From NCBI GenBank assembly GCA_000165345.1, contig CM000430.1, positions 192,001 to 256,000 of the forward strand: DNA of 64,000 nucleotides, given 5' to 3'. The notes under the pieces were generated by a model that was not told where the DNA came from, made no database searches, and saw nothing but the letters and a program-made list of their open reading frames with translations. Positions 9,210-54,793 of the stretch are shown piece after piece. Within the stretch, counting starts at the first letter, position 1; every line of letters starts with the position of its first letter. A program made the translations under genes and the position numbers.

Positions 9210-11054
9210 TTAGTCCATGTCATCGTTTTGAGAACGGGGCTTTGGACCTCCTGCAGGCTTTGCCATAATGATTTCATCTATTTTAAGAATAGTAACAGCT
9301 GAGTCTGTTGCTAATTTTAAAGCAGAACAAAGAGTGCCCAAATGATCGACAATCAATCCTACTCCCTGCTCATTATTTGAGATACAGTCAATAATTGGAG
9401 AAGTTCCAGAACCACAGAAAACATTTATTCCTTTATGTGGTTGAGAACCTTGTTGATGTATTGCATGTAGTGATGCCAGAAGATCGGTGGAGTTTAGTCC
9501 AGAATTCTCAGCCAATAGTCTTGGGAAAACGTCTAAAGCTTCAGCAAACATATTTACTGCGTACTCCTCCATTCCAGGAACAGGTACATCTACAGAATTT
9601 TGTTGGTATTTGTTTTCAGACTTATCATATGCTCTCAAGCATTTAGAAAGCTCAACAAATGTAGCCCCAGCGCCAGCAACAAATCGATTATCTTTTGTAG
9701 ATGATTTAACAACAGAGACAGAATTCGCAATAGCCCTTTCCATTTCATCCAAAATTCCCTGAGTAGCACCTCTAAGAATAACTGAGCTTACTTTGGTATT
9801 AAGAGCATTAATCACAGTGACCTTCTTCGATCCAATTTCCTCAACCCTGATAGAACTAGCCTTTCCTATTTCTTCTGGAAGAGGAACTCCCAATCTAACC
9901 ATTGCAACAGCTCCAATACTTCGGCAAATGCGCCTCAGTTCCCATTTAGATGTAATTCTTAGAGTTAATATATCGTACTTGTTGCAAAAGTGTTGTGCAA
10001 TATCAGAAATTGGACCGCCTGCGATAATAGCATCGATCTTACCGGTTTGTTTAATATCTTTAATCAAGTTTTCAACCAGAGATTCCTCACCTCTAGTAAA
10101 ATCCAAAAGCTCTTGAGCATTATTTAAAACAACTGTACCTTTCGCCTCTGTTCCAGTCATCTCTAGTCCACATCCTAAAACCATAACATTTGAGACCTTT
10201 TCCAATTTTCTTATTGTACCTCCAGGCTCTCTATTAACCATCATACCATTTATTGTAAATGATTGCATTGGGGATCCTCCCAAAAGCTTAACAATTCTTA
10301 CATTGTCTATATTGAATTCTTTTAATTTATCTTCATCTGGCATTATGCTTGTAATGGCTTCACATGTCAATCTCGTAATTAAATCAGAATATCCTATATT
10401 CTTTGTTGAAACCAAAGGCCTTACAATTCCAGATAAGTCACTAACATTCTTAAAATTAGCAACTCTATGTGCTACCATTCCATTTAGTAAAGATAATGAT
10501 CTTTCTAAGGCTATTTCATATCCTGCTACAATATCTGAAGGATGTAAACCATTATCATTAAGTAGCTTTGCAGCATTTCTTAATAATTCTCCTGCAAATA
10601 TCAAAACTGTATTGCTCGCATCACCGTACTCTTCAGCCTGCCTCTTACATGCCATTACTACCATATTTGCTGCTGGATGCTGGATATCAAGTTCTTCTAT
10701 AATTGTTGACAAGTCACTAGTGATGAACTGTTTTCCAAGATGATTCACAATTAACTTATTCATGCTATTTGGACCATATGATGTTTGAGTCATCTCACTT
10801 AAATTTACGCAAGCCTCAATATTCCTCAATACGGCCTCATCCAGGCCGGAAAATGCCCTGCTTCCATCTTTTAATAAATTTGTAATTCCTGGTCTTAATT
10901 GGAACTAAAAACAATCAGAGGAAATTAATTAATGAAAATAATAATTAAAAAAATTGACCAATAAGTAGCTCAAGCTAAAAAGAATGAAGGCAAATGGGCC
11001 ATATCGCCATGTTCACCTTATTATTGACCAATTTTTATACTCTAAACTTACCAT
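9210..11054 (-). CDS. CCT8: T-complex protein 1 subunit theta (CCT8). Two exons: exon 1 is the ATG only (11054..11052), intron 11051..10905, exon 2 10904..9210
   Basis: The C-terminus IIMAKPAGGPKPRSQNDDMD matches human CCT8 IIMAKPAGGPKPPSGKKDWDDDQND; the equatorial-domain motifs are present. The open frame upstream of the ORF-track start reads FQLRPGITNLLKDGSRAFSGLDEAVLRNIEAC (human: PGFAQMLKEGAKHFSGLEEAVYRNIQAC) and ends at an acceptor tttttag; 147 nt further upstream lies ATG|GTAAGT. Confidence 0.85.
10905..11051 (-). other. Spliceosomal intron (147 nt) placed immediately after the start codon of CCT8
   Basis: Minus-strand ATG at 11054-11052 is followed directly by GTAAGT; acceptor TGTTTTTAG ends at 10905; the splice restores the conserved CCT8 N-terminus. 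Confidence 0.7.
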
Positions 11055-11507
11055 TGCTTCCTATTCTTTTTTTCTTGGCCAAACAATTTTAAATTAATTG
11101 GTATAATTGACCACACAATACACCCTCTTTCTAAAAAAAAAACAAGAAAAAATGTATTTCCACTTCGCAAACTTCTTCCGGTTCCCCCCTATTTGGCTCA
11201 TTTTCAAGTATGAGACATGATGTCTTTAATGATTATTTGAAGGGCTCTATGTTTCCCGCCTATTCTTAAAAAATTATATTAAAAATATACTATGGGGAAA
11301 AAGTTAAGTATTGTGTGGAAAATATGTTTTCTGAGTAAAAATTTGTTGAAATAAAAAAGTGCAATATTTTGACCAAACATTGAAGTTTTGTGATAGTTAT
11401 TGAATAGCTTGGTTGAACACACAATATCGGGCATTTTTGAAGTTCTAATGGTTGATTTTGAAGTAAAATGCTAAATATATTGAAAATATAGGAAAATAAA
11501 TAAGAAA

Positions 11508-12638
11508 ATGAAATTCCCAAATACATTAGAAATTAAGGAAAAGATTTCAAAAAGAGTATTTAATGCAAAATACAAAAGCCAGGACGTTGTGCTTAAATTA
11601 TTTACACCTGACGATTTGGATGGCTGTGCCGCCCAAATAAAACATGTTTTCGATGAGTATGAAGGCACAGATTGTGATTACTTGGAAACATCATTGGATG
11701 ACAGAGTTTTATATTGTATAAATATACATTATTTAATCCAAAGAAAGCTAGGGATATCCATGACATCAGAATATTACCGCAAAGATATGCAGGAATGGGT
11801 TTTTGAAACGATTGTAGATGGTCAAAGAGATTATTTAGAATCATCTCTGTCCGAAGAAAACAGATCTAGAACTAGCAAAGATATGAAAAATTCTTTCATA
11901 CAGCTGATTCATGTTTTTGGTGTGAGATTTGATCAGAAATCTCAAGTTTTTACTTCCCAGGATCAATTTATTGGCCTCATTTTTCCTAAGTTGGGGCAGC
12001 CATTGATGAATTTTGCACAAAACCAAAGATGGGTTCCAAATCCCATTTATCTATCTTCCGTCTTTAGTGATGAATTGTCTATTGCTCATATCTTCAAGGA
12101 TGTTGTAAAATCTGCTTTATTTCTTTTAAGAGAGTTGAATATTGTCCATAAAGATATTAAGATCGAAAATATATGCACTGTATTAGACAACCCAGAATCA
12201 AATAAAATACATCCTATAATAATTGATTTTGGTGAATCTCAGATTCTAAGTAATAATGGAATGCTCAGAGACGCATATGGGACTCATACAATGCTACCTC
12301 CAGAAGCATTTACATATTCATTTTGTTCTCACAATGATGAAAATTATATGGGTTATTCTGCTGAAAAAAGAGAAGTTTGGACTCTCGGCTGTTTATTGCA
12401 TACTCTAGTTTTTGGTTATCCCCCTTATTTTGATATATTCTCAAAAAAATCTCCCATAGAATTTCAGTTGAAACTGTGTGATGAAAGCATTACTATTGAT
12501 ATTCCTACCTACTCAAGTGTGCTAAATGCAGATATCTCACACAATTTGAGAAACCTCCTTAGTAGTATACTAGTCAAAGCCCCTAATAATAGACTTTGTC
12601 TTGAAAATATTTTATTACATCCATGGCTCCAACCCTAG
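11508..12638 (+). CDS. Divergent Ser/Thr protein kinase-like protein
   Basis: Catalytic-loop-like HKDIKIEN, DFG as DFGES, activation segment ...PPE, candidate beta3 Lys in VVLKLF; no canonical GxGxxG loop and a long insert between beta3 and the catalytic loop. Confidence 0.6.
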   Translation: MKFPNTLEIKEKISKRVFNAKYKSQDVVLKLFTPDDLDGCAAQIKHVFDEYEGTDCDYLETSLDDRVLYCINIHYLIQRKLGISMTSEYYRKDMQEWVFETIVDGQRDYLESSLSEENRSRTSKDMKNSFIQLIHVFGVRFDQKSQVFTSQDQFIGLIFPKLGQPLMNFAQNQRWVPNPIYLSSVFSDELSIAHIFKDVVKSALFLLRELNIVHKDIKIENICTVLDNPESNKIHPIIIDFGESQILSNNGMLRDAYGTHTMLPPEAFTYSFCSHNDENYMGYSAEKREVWTLGCLLHTLVFGYPPYFDIFSKKSPIEFQLKLCDESITIDIPTYSSVLNADISHNLRNLLSSILVKAPNNRLCLENILLHPWLQP

Positions 12639-20060: not shown

Positions 20061-23000
20061 ATGAATAAGTATCTACTTATTTACCATTTTTTCCTACAGG
20101 TGGTAATTCTATTATCAATTAATGGAATTTCATTAGGAAAAGAATCTGATTTGGTAGATAACGAGGAATGTGAAAATCCGGAGTATTTGTTTCCCTGGGG
20201 GAACGATTATCTTAATTCATGTTTGAGTTTTCAATGCCATAGGGTCCGAGAACATAAAAGTTGGTATCGCTTTTGGGAAAAAAAACCAAAATATGTTCAT
20301 AAAAATATTAATGGAAGTGAACGGGTGATACAATGTTCAGACTGTGAAGGTTTTTTAAAGAAAGGAGCTCTATTTGGTGGAATGTCAATTTGTACTCCAA
20401 TTGAGTTTGGTGGTAGTTTTGATATACCAAAAGGTTGGGTATCTATAGCTACTGCAAGCTTGCAATTAAATAAGGAAATTAAGAATAAAAGCTCAATTAA
20501 GTTAATTCCAGATAACTGGAGAATTGATGGACAGACTAAAAAGACAACCTTGGACTTGTCCGCTTGTTCCACTTCTGATGATTCTGAAGTAGCTTTATCT
20601 ATATTAGTAACTTTATCAAATATAGCCGAACCTTCCAGAAAGTCCTCAAAATATAGACGTATTTTGGGTCTTCATGATGATTCAATTAATGTGAGGATTA
20701 AAACTCTTGGAGTTGATATGGGAGACTCAGCGGATGGTTTTGACGATGATGATTTGGATGATGACTTTGATGACGAATTTGATAGTGAAGATGTTCAACA
20801 AAGCATGCAACCTGATAATGGGTATAATGAGTACTTTTTGTATGATATGAATAAATTAGCTTCAACACAGCATAGGGTACCTAGAGACAACCCATCCAAG
20901 GGCAAAAAAAATAAGCGAAAAGTAAGAAAGCAAAAACCATTTACTGGTGCAGAAAAACTCCCAAGAAAATGGAAACTTAGCAAAGGCCATGCTTCGATAT
21001 ATTCATCGTCCGATGTTGTGAGGCTTGATCTTGCTTCAGATATTCACCCCAATGAACTTGTCCAAGTTATTCTTACATGTAATAACAAATATATGAATTG
21101 CAATATCCAAGACTTTGTTTCGTGCTTCAATATTCTCTGTAGATCTGTAACCAAGGAAGAGCTTATTCGTAGAGCAGCTTTAATGAAAGCTAAACGGTTC
21201 ATTTCAAATTCTATTATTTCAGGTCAAGTAGTGCCTAAAATGGCTTATAACGGCATGCCATTTCAACCCGGTTTCCCGCCTGCTATTCCAGGGCCTTTCA
21301 ATGGTCAATTCCAGTATCCACATGCAAATAATATAGTAAATGGGAATTTCATACAAAGAAATTCAACTTTGCCTATTCAAGGAGTTTCGAGTGTAGGAGC
21401 AAATTATATTCAAAATAGGGGAAAAAATGGGATTGTTATGGTTAACAATGGAGTAGGAAAGCCTGCTGAAGTAAGTAACCAAGCTAACGTTTTTGTTGGA
21501 AATAATGATGGCGTACAAAATGTAAATATAAATACCAATACTAAGACTGCTGGAATTTCTAATATTTCCCTTCAGCAACCTCCTGCAAATGTTAAAACTT
21601 CTCAGAGTACCGCAGCATCAAAGGGTATTCAAATAATTTTTGTACCAGCACAGAGTCAAACGAATGCCCACTGCCAAAGCCAAACTAACATGGTTAATGT
21701 AAATAAAGCTGTGACTAAATCATCGTTAAAACAGAAAAAGCAAAAAACCTTCATAAGTCAAAACATCATTCCAAAGGAAAACACTAATATTCCAAATCAA
21801 ATTAATAATCCTCAAATACCTACACCAAAACAATCTAAGTCTCAAATAAACCAGATCGGAGTTTATGGCCCTGCTAATCACACCGTTGTTACCTCGTATA
21901 ACTCAAATGTATTAAACACTGATATTTATCAAACTTCCTCTGAGAAAAACTTGGAGAGTCAACCAACAACAGTTTGTATACTAGCTATGGAACCTAAAAG
22001 TGAATCTAAAGTAAATGTTGCGAGTTCAAACACAATTCAGCCCGTAGAACAAACTCAATTCAGCAATGTAAAACAAGATGTTACAGTAGTTTTTAATCCT
22101 ATAAATACAGTTACAAAAACCTCAAAAACTAGCAAACGCAATACTGTGAAACAAACAACAACTAAAACTCAAGCACCAACTTTAAATATTTTATTAGTTC
22201 CTAGTAAGACTGTTAAAAGAAAGAATAATTTCAAGAAAGTTTCTAAAGTCTCTAAAAACGAGGTTAAACATGCAAATAAAACAGTAGACATTATTTTGTT
22301 AAATAGTAATTTAAATCATAAACCTAAAAAGGCTGTTGATAAAAGTAATTCAGATTATATGGCTTTGAATACAAATAATGTCCTAAAACCTCCAAAAATA
22401 ATAACAGGCAAGATAACCTACAAATTGCCTAAAAAAATCAAGAAAAGTAGCAAATCAACAAAGCCAGAGTTTAATATTATAGATACCATAGTTTTAGAAA
22501 AGGTTGATAATAAGGAACCCAGAAACAAAATTGAAAAGTTAGTCCCTGTGGATAGCTCTTCTTTAAGTGATGAGAATATTTTATTATCAGATTCTGAAAT
22601 TAGTAGCCAATACATTTCTAGTAGCCAGAAGAAACATTCTAGACAGTCGCATAGCTCCCGTTCGAAGAATAAAGCTCATAGAAAGAAGTCCATAAAAGTT
22701 ATATCTCGAGAAGACGGAGCAACTGAAAACGTTCTGCTAGATTCCAACAAACATATTTCTAATTCCGATAATAAGGCTTCTTCGGTCAAAGTAGAAAAAT
22801 ATATTCTACATCCAGTTGGCACTTCAGAAAGTTCTGAGGACTCTGAAAGTTTTAGCGAATATGAATTTGGCTCGGAAGAAATTGGATATCTGAGTGATGA
22901 AGATTTCAGTGCCCTAATTCTGAAAAAAGTTAAAGATGATTCTGCAAAGTCAGATAAATCAGTGAAAACGGAGTCCAATTCTAAAGTCTCTATTCAGTCA

Positions 23001-23252: not shown

Positions 23253-23670
23253 TTACTCAGAGAATTTAATTTTTAGTTCTGGCGGGAAACGAGTGTAATT
23301 TAATCAAATGTTTATTGATACTTCACGGACGTTAAGTTTTTTTTTAATTTATCCATCATTAACACATTTTAACTAGTAAGTCTAAGAATGAAGAGTCAGA
23401 AATTATGCTTTAGTTTTTTAGATTTATTTTAATTCAATTATTATTTCATTAGAGTAGGTATTTAGGTATTTTTAAGGATTTTTTCATGATTTCCGTTTTC
23501 CGGATATATGCCATATTCTCAGTAAATAATAACTTAAACCTAGTAGGGATAAATTAGTAACTTGGATTTATTATAGAAAACGAAACATGGCAAAACTTAT
23601 TTGTTTTATAACTATTGCAATAATATTGAGATTTTTCTTCCAAACAAATGAATTTTCTGTCAAATTGTGG

Positions 23671-25322: not shown

Positions 25323-27155
25323 ATGGCAGATACTCACTATCCAAATGGAAGCTTTGAAGAATATGAAGAAGAGAGCGTATATGAAATGGATAGATTAAAT
25401 ATTAATGATGAGTATATTGATGAACAAGGCGCAGAACATAATACTTCTGCATGCGCTACTAATTTGGGACTGTATAACTTTGACAGCGAGGATGATGAGA
25501 TATCAAGAGAAATTTATAAAGGATATGGAATAAAAAATGAGACAGATGGCTCAGTTACTGAAACTGAAAGAACAATCCATGAAAATGAAAATGAGAAAGA
25601 AAGTCAATTGAAAACACCACCAAAAAGACCATTTTTAAGGAAGGGAGAAGGTAAGTCCTTGGTAATAAGTAACTCAAGAAAAGCAAATGGAGAATCTATT
25701 TCTAGAAGAAGTTCCCAAATTAGGTCGAACGCAGCAGCCAAGATTGTTCCGAGCTCAGCTCCTTCCAGAAGGTTTATACGTTCAAACAAGTCAGTTGTGC
25801 CAGAAGCAGGTAGAAACAGCAAACTAGACTCGTTATTATTGGGAATTGAAAGCTCAAATTTGACCACCGAGAGTGGGGTGGAAGGATTTGAAATCTTCGA
25901 TGCTGAAGAAGAGTTTCTAGGGATTGACTGGGGCAAAGAACAGAATATTGTCAATGCAAAAAGTAATAGGGATGAGAAAATTAAGGGAAATATTACAGAA
26001 AAGGACCAAGAAAAAGACTATGACAAATTGATTCAACAAAAGTTGGATTTACTTGATGAGAAGATGGAATATATACATGAGACACACGAGGAAATGCTTA
26101 AGAAAAAGACTTTGTTGGCCAGAGAAAGAAAACTTCTTGAAAGCCAAAAAGTGACTTTTGAAAAAGAGTTGAGGGCTAAGTTTGAAAAGAGTAAGCAAGA
26201 AATAGAATCAGAAAAACGACGTTTGGAAAGAGAAAATAACAAGCTAACCAAGGATAAGATTGCCTTGAGCGATCAGGTAACTCGTTTAAAGATGACAATC
26301 AAGGCAAAAGACGCTGAGATCAATCGACTCACTAAAGAAATTACAATGATGGAGAAGAAAGAAAAAGAGAGAGAAAGTATGCAAAATAGAATCCCTATAG
26401 GAAAGAAAGAAAGCTCATCTGAAAGTGTGGAAAAGAAACGAGCTGTTAATCTGAGAGCTAATAATCAGAAAAATGGAGAATTTGAAAGAGCCAGACTTGC
26501 AGGAAACACCGGTATTACTACATTGACTACCAATTTGCAGACGACTACATCAATTTCTTCCAACTCTTCAGGTTCATTTATAGATCGGGATTTAGTTATT
26601 GAAGAACAATTGGCAGCCTTTGACTTTGAAAAGGAATTGGATTTACTATATGGAATCTTAAGTACTTGCTTTGAGTTTGTAAGTGAAGGGGAAGACTTCA
26701 CAACTTTACCAGGTATTCCTGAAGACGTAGGGAGACCATGGTGTGATATTGAAAAGCCGTATAAAGTTCAGAAAGACGACGATTTGAGAACTATTACCTA
26801 TAAGTTCCCTAGTGGACTTGTTGAAATTGTATTTTATGATGAGCAAGAGGATTCTGTTTGTCCAAAAAACACAAGAAAGTTACTTTGGACTCATCTTGGT
26901 TGGTGTATTCTAGTTTATCCAAATGGAGATATTAAAGCAATCAAACCTGACAAAAATATTACTTACCATTATGTTGAAAAAGATATTGTAAAATGCGTAG
27001 TAAGTACTATGGATCTATTGAACTATGATGGAGAAACAACTAAGCTACATTTTAGCAAGTTTTTCTCTCTTGGGCAGTTGCAATGTGTCGATCCTGAGAC
27101 TAGAAAAACATACATAATTCATTCCGATATGTCTAAGCAAATCCTTAATGGTTGA
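25323..27155 (+). CDS. Coiled-coil protein with a C-terminal beta-rich region resembling the G-box (TCP10_C) repeat of CPAP/SAS-4
   Basis: Central heptad-rich region (KKKTLLARERKLLESQK...EKRRLERENNKLTKDK); C-terminal YKFPSGLVEIVFYDEQ...LVYPNGDIKAIKPDKNITYHY...NYDGETTKLHF follows the FPDGT/YPNG G-box periodicity. Confidence 0.55.
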   Translation: MADTHYPNGSFEEYEEESVYEMDRLNINDEYIDEQGAEHNTSACATNLGLYNFDSEDDEISREIYKGYGIKNETDGSVTETERTIHENENEKESQLKTPPKRPFLRKGEGKSLVISNSRKANGESISRRSSQIRSNAAAKIVPSSAPSRRFIRSNKSVVPEAGRNSKLDSLLLGIESSNLTTESGVEGFEIFDAEEEFLGIDWGKEQNIVNAKSNRDEKIKGNITEKDQEKDYDKLIQQKLDLLDEKMEYIHETHEEMLKKKTLLARERKLLESQKVTFEKELRAKFEKSKQEIESEKRRLERENNKLTKDKIALSDQVTRLKMTIKAKDAEINRLTKEITMMEKKEKERESMQNRIPIGKKESSSESVEKKRAVNLRANNQKNGEFERARLAGNTGITTLTTNLQTTTSISSNSSGSFIDRDLVIEEQLAAFDFEKELDLLYGILSTCFEFVSEGEDFTTLPGIPEDVGRPWCDIEKPYKVQKDDDLRTITYKFPSGLVEIVFYDEQEDSVCPKNTRKLLWTHLGWCILVYPNGDIKAIKPDKNITYHYVEKDIVKCVVSTMDLLNYDGETTKLHFSKFFSLGQLQCVDPETRKTYIIHSDMSKQILNG

Positions 27156-47640: not shown

Positions 47641-47961
47641 ATGCCACCAAAGGGTGAAAAGAAGACTAAGGAGCAAATTGCAGCAGCAGCAGCAGCAGGA
47701 GGTAGAGCAAAGCGCAAGAAGTGGTCAAAGGGTAAGCAAAAGGATAAGGCAAACCACTCCGTCTTGTTCGACAAGAAGACTGCAGACCGTTTCCATAGTG
47801 ATGTTTTGAAGTCAAGACTTTTGACCCCAGCTGTCGTTGTTAACCAATTAAAGGTTAATGCCAGCGCTGCTAGAGCCATGTTACGTGACTGTGAATCAAA
47901 GGGAATTATCAAGCCAGTTGGAGAACAGACTCACGGACAAATGATATATACAAAGGCATAA
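47641..47961 (+). CDS. RPS25: 40S ribosomal protein S25 (eS25)
   Basis: MPPKGEKKTKEQ...KKWSKGKQKDKANHSVLFDKKTADRF...KLLTPAVVVNQLKVNASAARAML is the eS25 signature. Confidence 0.93.
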   Translation: MPPKGEKKTKEQIAAAAAAGGRAKRKKWSKGKQKDKANHSVLFDKKTADRFHSDVLKSRLLTPAVVVNQLKVNASAARAMLRDCESKGIIKPVGEQTHGQMIYTKA

Positions 47962-51880: not shown

Positions 51881-54793
51881 CTACATAGAAAGTTGACTCT
51901 GAGAGTCTTGATCCGTGTAACTTCTTTTACAAATTATTTTGATATTATTTCCCATTGAGTCAGTAGTTTCTGATATTAAGTAGTGCTTTAAGAATGAGGA
52001 TGATTTTAAATACGATAATGTCACATTATGAGAAAGTTTGATTTTCTCTGCTATTGCTATAAACTCATCCAGATTTACGGTCAGATTGTCAACTTCTTCC
52101 ACAATAGTATTCATCTGCTCCTCATCCCAATTTCTGAGCTTAATCTTTTGAATCTTATCTGAGAATAATTGTAATAAGAGATTTTCCAGCACATCCACAA
52201 ATCCACTGCTCAATGCCTTATATCTAGAGAAGATCTTTGAAAGTCTCTGAGCTACTGCATACTTTTGACTCTGAATGAATGATTCGAGCACCATACCAAT
52301 CGCTCCATCAACATCCTTATTTGATACGACTGGACTCAGTCTCATTTTTGCTTGAGCCTCTGCAAGACGAATAATACTCTCTATATGTCTTACAGTCATT
52401 GAAATGCCTCCGGTTTGCTGAGCCTCTTGTCTAATTCTCGAGTAGAATGTTATAATCTTTTCTTTATCAACGCTTCTAATCTGTGGTTTACAGTATTTCC
52501 TTGCGTATCTAATATATTTGCAGAGTAGCTTTTGGTCGATTGGTGCAAATCTCTGATCACAATTTTGGCTTGTATCGCTTAGACCAGAAGAAAACTTCTT
52601 CTCTTGATCATCCTGGTCCAAGCCACTACTTCCATACATTTCCTGACTATTCATGTGAGACTGAACCACGAAATTCGCCAATAATTCGTCTTTCATTGGA
52701 TGAACCTCGTCCTTCAAAACCGCTAAAACATCAAAACGAGAAATAATAGGATCTGTCAAATCTACATTATCCTTAAATGTCAAGCTGGAGTCATATTTGC
52801 CAAATATTGGGTTTGCTGCTGCAATAATACTGCACCTTGCACGTAGTGTTGTCACAATTCCTGCCTTTGAAATTGAAATACTCTGTTGTTCCATTGCTTC
52901 GTGAATAGAAACTCTATCTTTATCGCTCATTTTGTCAAACTCATCAATCAAACAGATACCTTCATCAGCAAGAACTAATGCACCTCCTTCGAGTGTCCAC
53001 TCACCAGAAATAGGATCTCTTCTAACTGAAGCAGTCAACCCAACAGCTGATGCTCCTTTACCTGATGTGTAAATTGTTCTGTCAAAACTCTTTTCTACAT
53101 ATTTGAGGAACTGACTCTTTGCAAGCCCAGGATCACCAACAATTAAGACATTAATATCACCTCTAATATGGTGGTGTTTACCTTCCACTTGCTTTCTAAC
53201 CCCAGAAAATAATGAACAAGCAATGGCTGTCTTAATGTGATTGTGGCCATAAATTGATGGTGCAATTGATGAAACAATCTTCTCTTTTATATCAGGATCT
53301 CTGGATAACTCTTTAATTTTTTTGTAGTCCTCATCAGTGAGATCATCTTTTCTAAGCGCATCATGCTTCTTCTCAATATTATTGCAGAGTATTTGGGTTC
53401 CCAAAATTGGGAATCCAGATTTGATGTTTAACTTTTGGTCCCTAAATGTTCTGTAAATTCCAGTAACAATAATTTCTTCACCTGGACAGGCATAATCTAC
53501 TAAGTCTCCACTAACAATGATTTCTCTGGACCTCGGAACTCTTCCAGCTGGAACACTACCAGGGGATTCTTGAATAGTAAGCTTTTGATAGTTTTCGTAA
53601 ATTGTCTTTTCTCTGTTAATTACAAAGGGTCCCTTGCTCTGGCAATCGGTACATTTTCCAATATTCTTCATTATTGAATTGCTTTCGCTCAAAGATCCAC
53701 TTTCAAACAATGGATTGTCTTCATAAGGCCCTAAATTATCGCAGCCACACTTTACACATTCCATATATAGAGATTTAAACTTAGTCAAAATGTCAGTTCT
53801 CCTAGTAATAATTCCAGAAACCCTGATTAACTGGTTTAACCATTCTACTCTTAAATCTCTGAGTTGATCAATATAGTCTAGACCAATCAATCTTACCATA
53901 ATGGACTTTCCAGAATATAAACTATGGTACATAGATGTTACGACCTCATATGCACATTGGTTAAAACATTCAATTACTGGAGTAGGATAAAGGTTCAAAT
54001 AGTCCCAGAGTTTGTAACAAAAAGTAAAAATGTGCTTAACATCCACATACAAGCTGGTTTTTTCTTCTTGTACCATTTCTTCGATTTTTTTAATATAATA
54101 GAGATCTTCAAAAGAGATATTTCTGCCTTCTAATTTGTTATCACCATTTGAAATAGTTTTGTACATTGAGGAGAGTTTGAAGTCTTGTAGAAATACCTTA
54201 AATAGACGTCGAATGATATTTTCTACATGCTCACTCCATTCAGACTGCTCAGCCAATGGCAAATCTTGAATTAGTTCATTAATATCAACAATGGCGCCTC
54301 CTCTGGCTGCCTCGTCTGCCATCTCTCTAAAGGCTTCTCTACGTTTCCTTCTCTTTTCAATCTCACCTTCATCGCCATCATCTGCATTAAATGTGGAAAT
54401 TCCATATTTGTGGTGAATTTCCGTCTGCTTTCCCTGGGATTTCTCAGATTTCATTCTATCAAGAGCTAAATCTGCTCTTCTTTTTGCCTCAATATCATCT
54501 TCATAGTGAGTATCATCCAACATCTCAGGGTCATATTTATCTAATTCAGGGTTCTTATTATAATCATTCATGAAGTTGTCTCCATACAAATCTTCTCCAA
54601 GCTCCTCCTCTGACTCATTTGCAATCTCTTCCTCATACACTACTTCATCAACCGCTACCTCTTCTGCCTCACTGTAGTCACTAGGATCTTGTGTTAATAA
54701 AATGTTTGCAATGCCATTGCTTGAAGAATTATTTCCATCATGTGAATTCTGTGACGACTCATCGTCATCATGAACTCTATAGTTGCTACTCAT
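51881..54793 (-). CDS. MCM2: DNA replication licensing factor MCM2
   Basis: Acidic N-terminal tail; Zn finger CVKCGC...CTDCQS; the Walker A/B and Arg-finger region VLIVGDPGLAKSQFLKYVEK...ASAVGLTA...CLIDEFDKM...SRFD aligns over >150 aa with human MCM2. Confidence 0.93.
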   Translation of the reverse strand: MSSNYRVHDDDESSQNSHDGNNSSSNGIANILLTQDPSDYSEAEEVAVDEVVYEEEIANESEEELGEDLYGDNFMNDYNKNPELDKYDPEMLDDTHYEDDIEAKRRADLALDRMKSEKSQGKQTEIHHKYGISTFNADDGDEGEIEKRRKRREAFREMADEAARGGAIVDINELIQDLPLAEQSEWSEHVENIIRRLFKVFLQDFKLSSMYKTISNGDNKLEGRNISFEDLYYIKKIEEMVQEEKTSLYVDVKHIFTFCYKLWDYLNLYPTPVIECFNQCAYEVVTSMYHSLYSGKSIMVRLIGLDYIDQLRDLRVEWLNQLIRVSGIITRRTDILTKFKSLYMECVKCGCDNLGPYEDNPLFESGSLSESNSIMKNIGKCTDCQSKGPFVINREKTIYENYQKLTIQESPGSVPAGRVPRSREIIVSGDLVDYACPGEEIIVTGIYRTFRDQKLNIKSGFPILGTQILCNNIEKKHDALRKDDLTDEDYKKIKELSRDPDIKEKIVSSIAPSIYGHNHIKTAIACSLFSGVRKQVEGKHHHIRGDINVLIVGDPGLAKSQFLKYVEKSFDRTIYTSGKGASAVGLTASVRRDPISGEWTLEGGALVLADEGICLIDEFDKMSDKDRVSIHEAMEQQSISISKAGIVTTLRARCSIIAAANPIFGKYDSSLTFKDNVDLTDPIISRFDVLAVLKDEVHPMKDELLANFVVQSHMNSQEMYGSSGLDQDDQEKKFSSGLSDTSQNCDQRFAPIDQKLLCKYIRYARKYCKPQIRSVDKEKIITFYSRIRQEAQQTGGISMTVRHIESIIRLAEAQAKMRLSPVVSNKDVDGAIGMVLESFIQSQKYAVAQRLSKIFSRYKALSSGFVDVLENLLLQLFSDKIQKIKLRNWDEEQMNTIVEEVDNLTVNLDEFIAIAEKIKLSHNVTLSYLKSSSFLKHYLISETTDSMGNNIKIICKRSYTDQDSQSQLSM

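Follow-up and report, generated by a model that had tools for sequence, protein, structure and literature searches.

An intron directly behind the start codon of the CCT8 gene in Cryptosporidium parvum

Start-codon introns are defined as phase-0 introns located between codons 1 and 2, and a survey covering vertebrates, arthropods, fungi and plants found them to be enriched in genes for short, lysine-rich and ribosomal proteins (Nielsen and Wernersson 2006, BMC Genomics 7:256, PMC1626468). For Cryptosporidium parvum, RNA-seq raised the share of intron-containing genes from 4.3% to 10.8% (Isaza et al. 2015), and the introns of the IOWA-ATCC annotation are described as 100% RNA-seq supported (Baptista et al. 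2022). Both are general statements about the genome and are not gene-specific; a gene-level mention was sought in the Isaza 2015 supplement, where the term 'chaperonin' was not found.

Within this context, the stretch of DNA analysed here (64 kb in total, referred to below as the window; G+C approx. 31%) carries on its minus strand a CCT8 gene whose 5' end is almost certainly interrupted by one conventional U2-type GT-AG phase-0 start-codon intron (Table 1). The 2.1 kb around the site are identical to C. parvum CP044421.1 (IOWA-ATCC) and CP029781.1. This intron is already known and annotated in C. parvum, and its mechanism is ordinary; the interest of the locus lies mainly in how such a short first coding exon is treated by annotation and in how widely the intron position is shared.

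Table 1. Features at the 5' end of CCT8, in positions of the window
Feature	Position	Strand	Basis
Start codon ATG, sole coding bases of the first coding exon; 5' UTR upstream	11052..11054	-	Sequence and deposited models
5' splice site GTAAGT	11046..11051	-	Sequence; GTAAGTT unchanged across 7 Cryptosporidium species
Phase-0 spliceosomal intron, 147 nt	10905..11051	-	Gene span in CP044421.1 and CP029781.1
Polypyrimidine tract and 3' splice site tttcctctgattgtttttAG	10905..10924	-	Read on the sequence
Exon 2, CCT8 (TCP-1 theta) codons 2-565 and stop codon (9212-9210)	9210..10904	-	
TTG (Leu27), start in the mechanical ORF list, not genuine	10827..10829	-	TTA in C. andersoni
First in-frame ATG (Met39), start of the short C. 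hominis TU502 model	10791..10793	-	Unconserved

Structure of the CCT8 5' end and its deposited models

Judged by homology, the gene is CCT8, the TCP-1 theta subunit of the TRiC chaperonin, and not another CCT subunit. PF00118 (Cpn60_TCP1) is precomputed on every strong hit of the protein, and the best PDB matches are all entries named 'T-complex protein 1 subunit theta' (E = 3e-136), compared with approx. 1e-55 for the gamma and delta subunits. At the same E-value of 3e-136, the alignment with human CCT8 pairs residues 8-543 of the human subunit with residues 5-565 of the spliced product, which bears out the colinearity with the human subunit that had been proposed in the first-pass annotation of this DNA.

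Around the start, the minus strand reads ...gaataggaagca ATG gtaagtttagag..., with the start codon in the context gcaATG (A at -3), and on reading, the 144 nt before it (11198-11055) proved to contain no further ATG. The 3' end of the intron reads ...ctctgattgtttttAG, its AG lying at 10906-10905, after which exon 2 begins with TTC CAA TTA AGA CCA GGA ATT ACA (F Q L R P G ...) and is open from the first codon to the stop. Donor and acceptor are those of a U2-type GT-AG intron (consensus GTRAGT at the 5' side; at the 3' side tttcctctgattgtttttAG, which ends at 10905 and has 82% pyrimidines from position -20 to -3), and candidate branch-point sites of the form yUnAy (ttaat, ctgat) lie 11-28 nt upstream of the intron AG; a candidate branch-point sequence in the C. 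bovis intron is tactaac. In C. parvum, the G+C content of the intron is 28%, compared with 39% in exon 2. Removal of the intron restores an ORF that is colinear with its orthologues, the junction falling between codon 1 and codon 2 in phase 0. The resulting protein has 565 aa (M + FQLRPG...DDMD), with the predicted N-terminus (M)FQLRPGITNLLK and the corresponding peptide (Ac-)MFQLRPGITNLLK.

The mechanical ORF list instead places the start of CCT8 at the TTG at 10829, giving 539 aa. From this codon the frame remains open for exactly 75 nt, until an in-frame TAG (10907-10905), which itself contains the acceptor AG, closes it. These observations agree with the first-pass annotation, which had remarked that the ORF track starts CCT8 at a TTG and lacks the N-terminus, and whose coordinates and counts for the ATG abutting GTAAGT, the 147 nt, the tttttAG acceptor and the 75-nt open frame were all right on the sequence.

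According to the proposed mechanism, exon 1 of the pre-mRNA would comprise the 5' UTR and the AUG, and the spliceosome would excise the 147 nt from 11051 to 10905, thereby joining AUG to UUC CAA. Scanning ribosomes would then initiate at the exon 1 AUG, apparently the first in the mRNA, and the product would be the 565-aa CCT8 with its conserved equatorial-domain N-terminus. An unspliced reading from the ATG reaches a stop at codon 14; thus, without splicing, the AUG would open a 13-codon dead-end frame, and exon 2 would offer no AUG until codon 39, so that synthesis of the full-length subunit should need splicing. For C. parvum itself, we infer the splicing event, the branch point and the transcription start from these features.

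Exact look-up of the spliced 565-aa protein retrieved QOY43143.1 (CPATCC_000856), WKS76385.1 and WRK30878.1, all from C. parvum; the splice of ATG to TTC CAA across a 147-nt GT-AG intron, as put forward in the first-pass annotation, therefore yields exactly the protein of three C. parvum assemblies. In both CP044421.1 and CP029781.1, the gene is annotated over 1845 nt (3 + 147 + 1695), a length that cannot be translated contiguously, and the deposited model must therefore contain the ATG-only exon and the same intron. Compared with annotated CPATCC_000856 (QOY43143.1), protein and exon-intron structure are the same without any difference, and the window sequence re-derives the model. The suggestion that this exon is hidden from annotation consequently does not hold for the current reference annotation, which already includes it. 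The 90% cluster of the spliced protein also contains 565-aa proteins from C. hominis (including CUV04446.1), C. meleagridis, C. ubiquitum, C. canis and chipmunk genotype I, and matching orthologous models of 565 or 563 aa exist for these same species as well as for C. bovis, C. ryanae and C. xiaoi.

Nonetheless, a first coding exon of three bases is undetectable by ORF-based gene calling, and the expectation that a start-codon-only exon is prone to mis-annotation is borne out by faulty records. For example, the 2004 Iowa II record is a 'partial' protein of 564 aa with no Met, the C. hominis TU502 record (XP_668422.1) is shortened to 527 aa, and the C. tyzzeri record is shortened to 528 aa and begins MMTQ.... 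The C. felis model (JABXOJ010000013.1) uses a CTG start (555 aa) and misses the conserved ATG/GTAAGT at L008:1332 (region L008:1332-1500). In C. andersoni (LRBS01000069.1), the CCT8 start is probably mis-annotated as well: the model (MCGQM-VRPG) places two micro-exons, neither of them conserved, before the conserved ATG at L006:1588 (region L006:1501-1730) and takes a TTTCAG/ acceptor 6 nt downstream, whereas the simple conserved model gives MFQVRPG. Logan ORF calls of 527, 540 and 555 aa are a product of ORF calling on unspliced or genomic contigs. The main value of the present analysis concerns annotation quality: in five public Cryptosporidium records, the start is truncated, lacks the Met, is non-AUG or is over-elaborate. 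All these faults affect a chaperonin subunit that is essential; with the C. parvum reference being correct, there is no new C. parvum biology.

Conservation within the genus and alternative starts

Orthologous loci were collected from six further species, giving seven genomes together with C. parvum, and the start was located in each. All seven have the same arrangement, i.e., ATG/GTAAGTT, an intron, an acceptor and TT[CT] CA[AG] (F-Q, codons 2-3). Intron length is 147 nt in C. parvum, C. meleagridis and C. ubiquitum, 139 nt in C. felis and C. bovis, 132 nt in C. andersoni and 119 nt in C. ryanae; in three of the seven species the length is not divisible by three, and in all seven a stop interrupts the unspliced reading within 4-29 codons. 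Intron G+C is below exon G+C in six species (20-34% vs. 35-40%), the exception being C. felis, in which the intron reaches 40% and the exon 38%. In C. felis, C. ryanae, C. bovis and C. andersoni, identity of the intron to that of C. parvum is 57-65%, which is little above what the gapped global aligner used here yields when AT-rich sequences are loosely related; in the same four distant species, by contrast, exon 2 retains 77-88% identity over its first 60 nt. A diverged intron with kept splice sites is the pattern that would be left by a real intron.

Transcript-type evidence comes from a relative of these species. Logan contig SRR26126320_17480 (1896 nt) reads ...tcgaat ATG TTT CAG CTA AGA..., with no intron, and encodes a 563-aa CCT8 orthologue preceded by 97 nt and followed by 107 nt. 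The encoded protein shares 88% amino acid identity with C. bovis/C. xiaoi and 87% with C. ryanae, which indicates an origin from an unsampled relative of C. bovis/ryanae. Aligned with genomic DNA of C. ryanae and C. bovis, the contig is collinear on both sides, and exactly the intron is absent. By its length and ends the contig is transcript-like; formally, it could be genomic DNA of an intron-losing species. As a control, Logan contig L014 of Theileria equi encodes full CCT8 without the introns of the genomic copy (L013), and hence the Logan collection includes RNA-derived assemblies. The spliced junction AGGAAGCAATGTTCCAATTAAGACC had no exact match in metagenome contigs, and the exact C. parvum protein of 565 aa has no Logan source among its listed records.

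Codons 2-3 are TTT CAG in C. ryanae, C. bovis, C. andersoni and the Logan contig SRR26126320_17480 (L003:101-106), which creates a second possible acceptor 6 nt downstream whose use would delete F-Q in frame. Of the two acceptors, the upstream one is used in the Logan contig and the downstream one in the GenBank model of C. andersoni; with TTC CAA, C. parvum has no second acceptor option.

Among alternative readings of the 5' end, the first dispenses with splicing and starts translation at Met39 (10793-10791), producing the 527-aa protein deposited for C. hominis TU502, a length also seen in the Logan ORF calls. It appears very improbable, given that Met39 is replaced by Ile in C. canis, C. 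felis, C. bovis, C. ryanae, C. xiaoi and C. andersoni, and that the 37 residues before it are near-invariant in the genus and align with residues 8-41 of human CCT8 (5-38 of the spliced protein). Conservation of residues 2-38 points to selection at the protein level, so that translation must begin upstream of them.

It is similarly hard to credit that another or additional upstream coding exon supplies the start. Such a structure has been deposited in the form of the two-micro-exon model of C. andersoni; however, the same locus also contains the ATG/GTAAGT, a 132-nt intron and the MFQVRPG reading, and the upstream ATGTGTG used by the model has no counterpart in other species. Moreover, an 'MF' N-terminus is general in Toxoplasma, Vitrella, Theileria, Babesia, Cardiosporidium and Perkinsus, and in C. 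parvum the 144 nt upstream of 11054 are free of ATG.

A non-AUG start in the unspliced open frame, either at the TTG at 10829 given by the ORF list or, following the GenBank model of C. felis with its CTG start, at a CTG/TTA near Leu11, is extremely unlikely. Near-cognate initiation should be accompanied by a conserved start codon without conserved coding sequence upstream; here, the TTG codon is TTA in C. andersoni, and the residues before both the TTG and the CTG candidates are conserved as protein, the 26 upstream of TTG being kept throughout Cryptosporidium and even in the human protein. At the C. felis locus, moreover, a perfect ATG/GTAAGT is followed by a 139-nt intron and an in-frame cttcAG/TTCCAA acceptor.

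How often the motif arises by chance was assessed within the window. There, ATGGTAAGT occurs three times on both strands, vs. 0.63 expected from shuffles, and the probability that a copy falls by chance within one particular 300-nt segment of one strand is roughly 0.2-0.7%. That ATG and GTAAGT are adjacent by accident and the true 5' end lies elsewhere is next to inconceivable. Two further copies of ATGGTAAGT in the window are indeed chance occurrences antisense to plus-strand genes, but at CCT8 all seven species retain the nonamer, the acceptor and an intron whose length is similar, despite the divergence of the intron in the four distant ones, and the position is common to T. gondii and Vitrella. 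Chance juxtaposition is effectively refuted by these comparative data, the conservation in seven congeneric genomes and two outgroups being the decisive argument.

The first-pass annotation had also raised the possibility that the pattern recurs elsewhere in the genome, for which the window provides no support. The copy of ATGGTAAGT at 26969-26961 (-) lies antisense inside a 610-aa coiled-coil-rich plus-strand ORF (25323-27155 +), that at 48003-47995 (-) lies antisense just beyond an RPS25-like gene of 106 aa (47641-47961 +), and both were rejected as chance matches; occurrences of ATGGTA[AT]G at 53899, 10249 and 8415 are internal to ORFs. A more general scan of the window, in which any ATGGT had to be followed by an in-frame AG heading an open frame of at least 120 codons without ATG, left CCT8 as the sole credible case, no other candidate combining a good donor with a pyrimidine-rich acceptor.

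Age of the intron and neighbouring non-coding elements

In two outgroups, annotated gene models place an intron at the same position. The first coding exon of Toxoplasma gondii CCT8 consists of the ATG only (ATG/GTGAGA) and is followed by a 639-nt intron and TTC GCA AAC (F A N); in Vitrella brassicaformis, likewise annotated with an ATG-only first coding exon (ATG/GTAAGC), a 204-nt intron precedes TTT TCG (F S). Theileria equi and Perkinsus chesapeaki CCT8 have ATG TTC contiguously and no start-codon intron. The simplest reading of this distribution is that the intron position is probably ancestral to apicomplexans and chromerids and was lost in piroplasms; parallel gain of a start-codon intron is a possible alternative to shared ancestry. 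A position common to Cryptosporidium, Toxoplasma and Vitrella and absent in Theileria and Perkinsus represents a small data point for alveolate intron evolution.

The T. gondii CCT8 gene spans 5,320 nt with a CDS of 1,671 nt, and tblastn delimits at least seven coding blocks in addition to the ATG-only exon. In intron-poor Cryptosporidium, the start-codon intron is the only CCT8 intron that was kept. Introns retained in intron-poor genomes are reportedly biased to the 5' end, a tendency that Mourier and Jeffares are said to have described in 2003, and Cryptosporidium CCT8 is alike in that the 5'-most intron alone is kept. Such retention may result from 3'-biased reverse-transcriptase-mediated loss or from a function of the intron. 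A stronger version, in which the intron is ancient and has been selectively kept for a role in expression while Cryptosporidium lost all other CCT8 introns, is conceivable but rather unlikely; if it applied, intron-mediated enhancement could be involved, or binding sites represented by TGGTCAAT, perhaps together with the palindromic block found upstream of the gene.

Several non-coding elements were noted around the start. The sequence TGGTCAAT is present three times in gene orientation within 160 nt (11106-11113, 11023-11030 and 10953-10960, all on the minus strand), once upstream of the ATG and twice in the intron; the whole window has 9 copies vs. 2.9 expected. These copies are kept in C. 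meleagridis, correspond to TGATCAAT in the C. ubiquitum intron and are unrecognisable in distant species.

Further upstream, 150-185 nt from the CCT8 ATG, lies a 36-nt block, CAAATAATCATTAAAGACATCATGTCTCATACTTGA (CAAATAATCAYTWWAGACAYCATGTCTCATACTTGA), at 11204-11239 (-), which holds the palindrome AGACAT-C-ATGTCT and occurs as a single copy in the window. It is near-invariant in six intestinal species, namely C. parvum, C. meleagridis (with a 1-nt deletion), C. ubiquitum, C. felis, C. ryanae and C. bovis, in which the flanking intergenic DNA is barely alignable, and it was not found in C. andersoni. The block sits in the divergent promoter region common to CCT8 and a kinase gene (11508-12638 +) and is probably a transcription-factor site. 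A conserved upstream ATG-TCT-CAT-ACT-TGA was considered as a strict uORF and rejected, because the 1-nt deletion in C. meleagridis removes the ATG. A search of Rfam with 10700-11600, i.e., the upstream region and the intron, gave no match at E ≤ 1.

Another element, GGCGGGAAA, is found at 11252-11260 (-), 21272-21280 (-) and 23281-23289 (+), i.e., three times in the window vs. 0.09 expected, and the copy that precedes the CCT8 ATG by approx. 200 nt is conserved in C. meleagridis. We take this element to resemble the E2F motif.

Relation to described start-codon introns

As in the class surveyed by Nielsen and Wernersson (PMC1626468), the CCT8 intron is a phase-0 GT-AG intron located directly after the ATG, in a gene for a conserved housekeeping protein without a signal peptide, and its ATG/G junction fits the weak proto-splice-site argument discussed there. 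However, the gene differs from the set in which these introns are enriched, since CCT8 is a long (565 aa) chaperonin subunit and its host is an apicomplexan.
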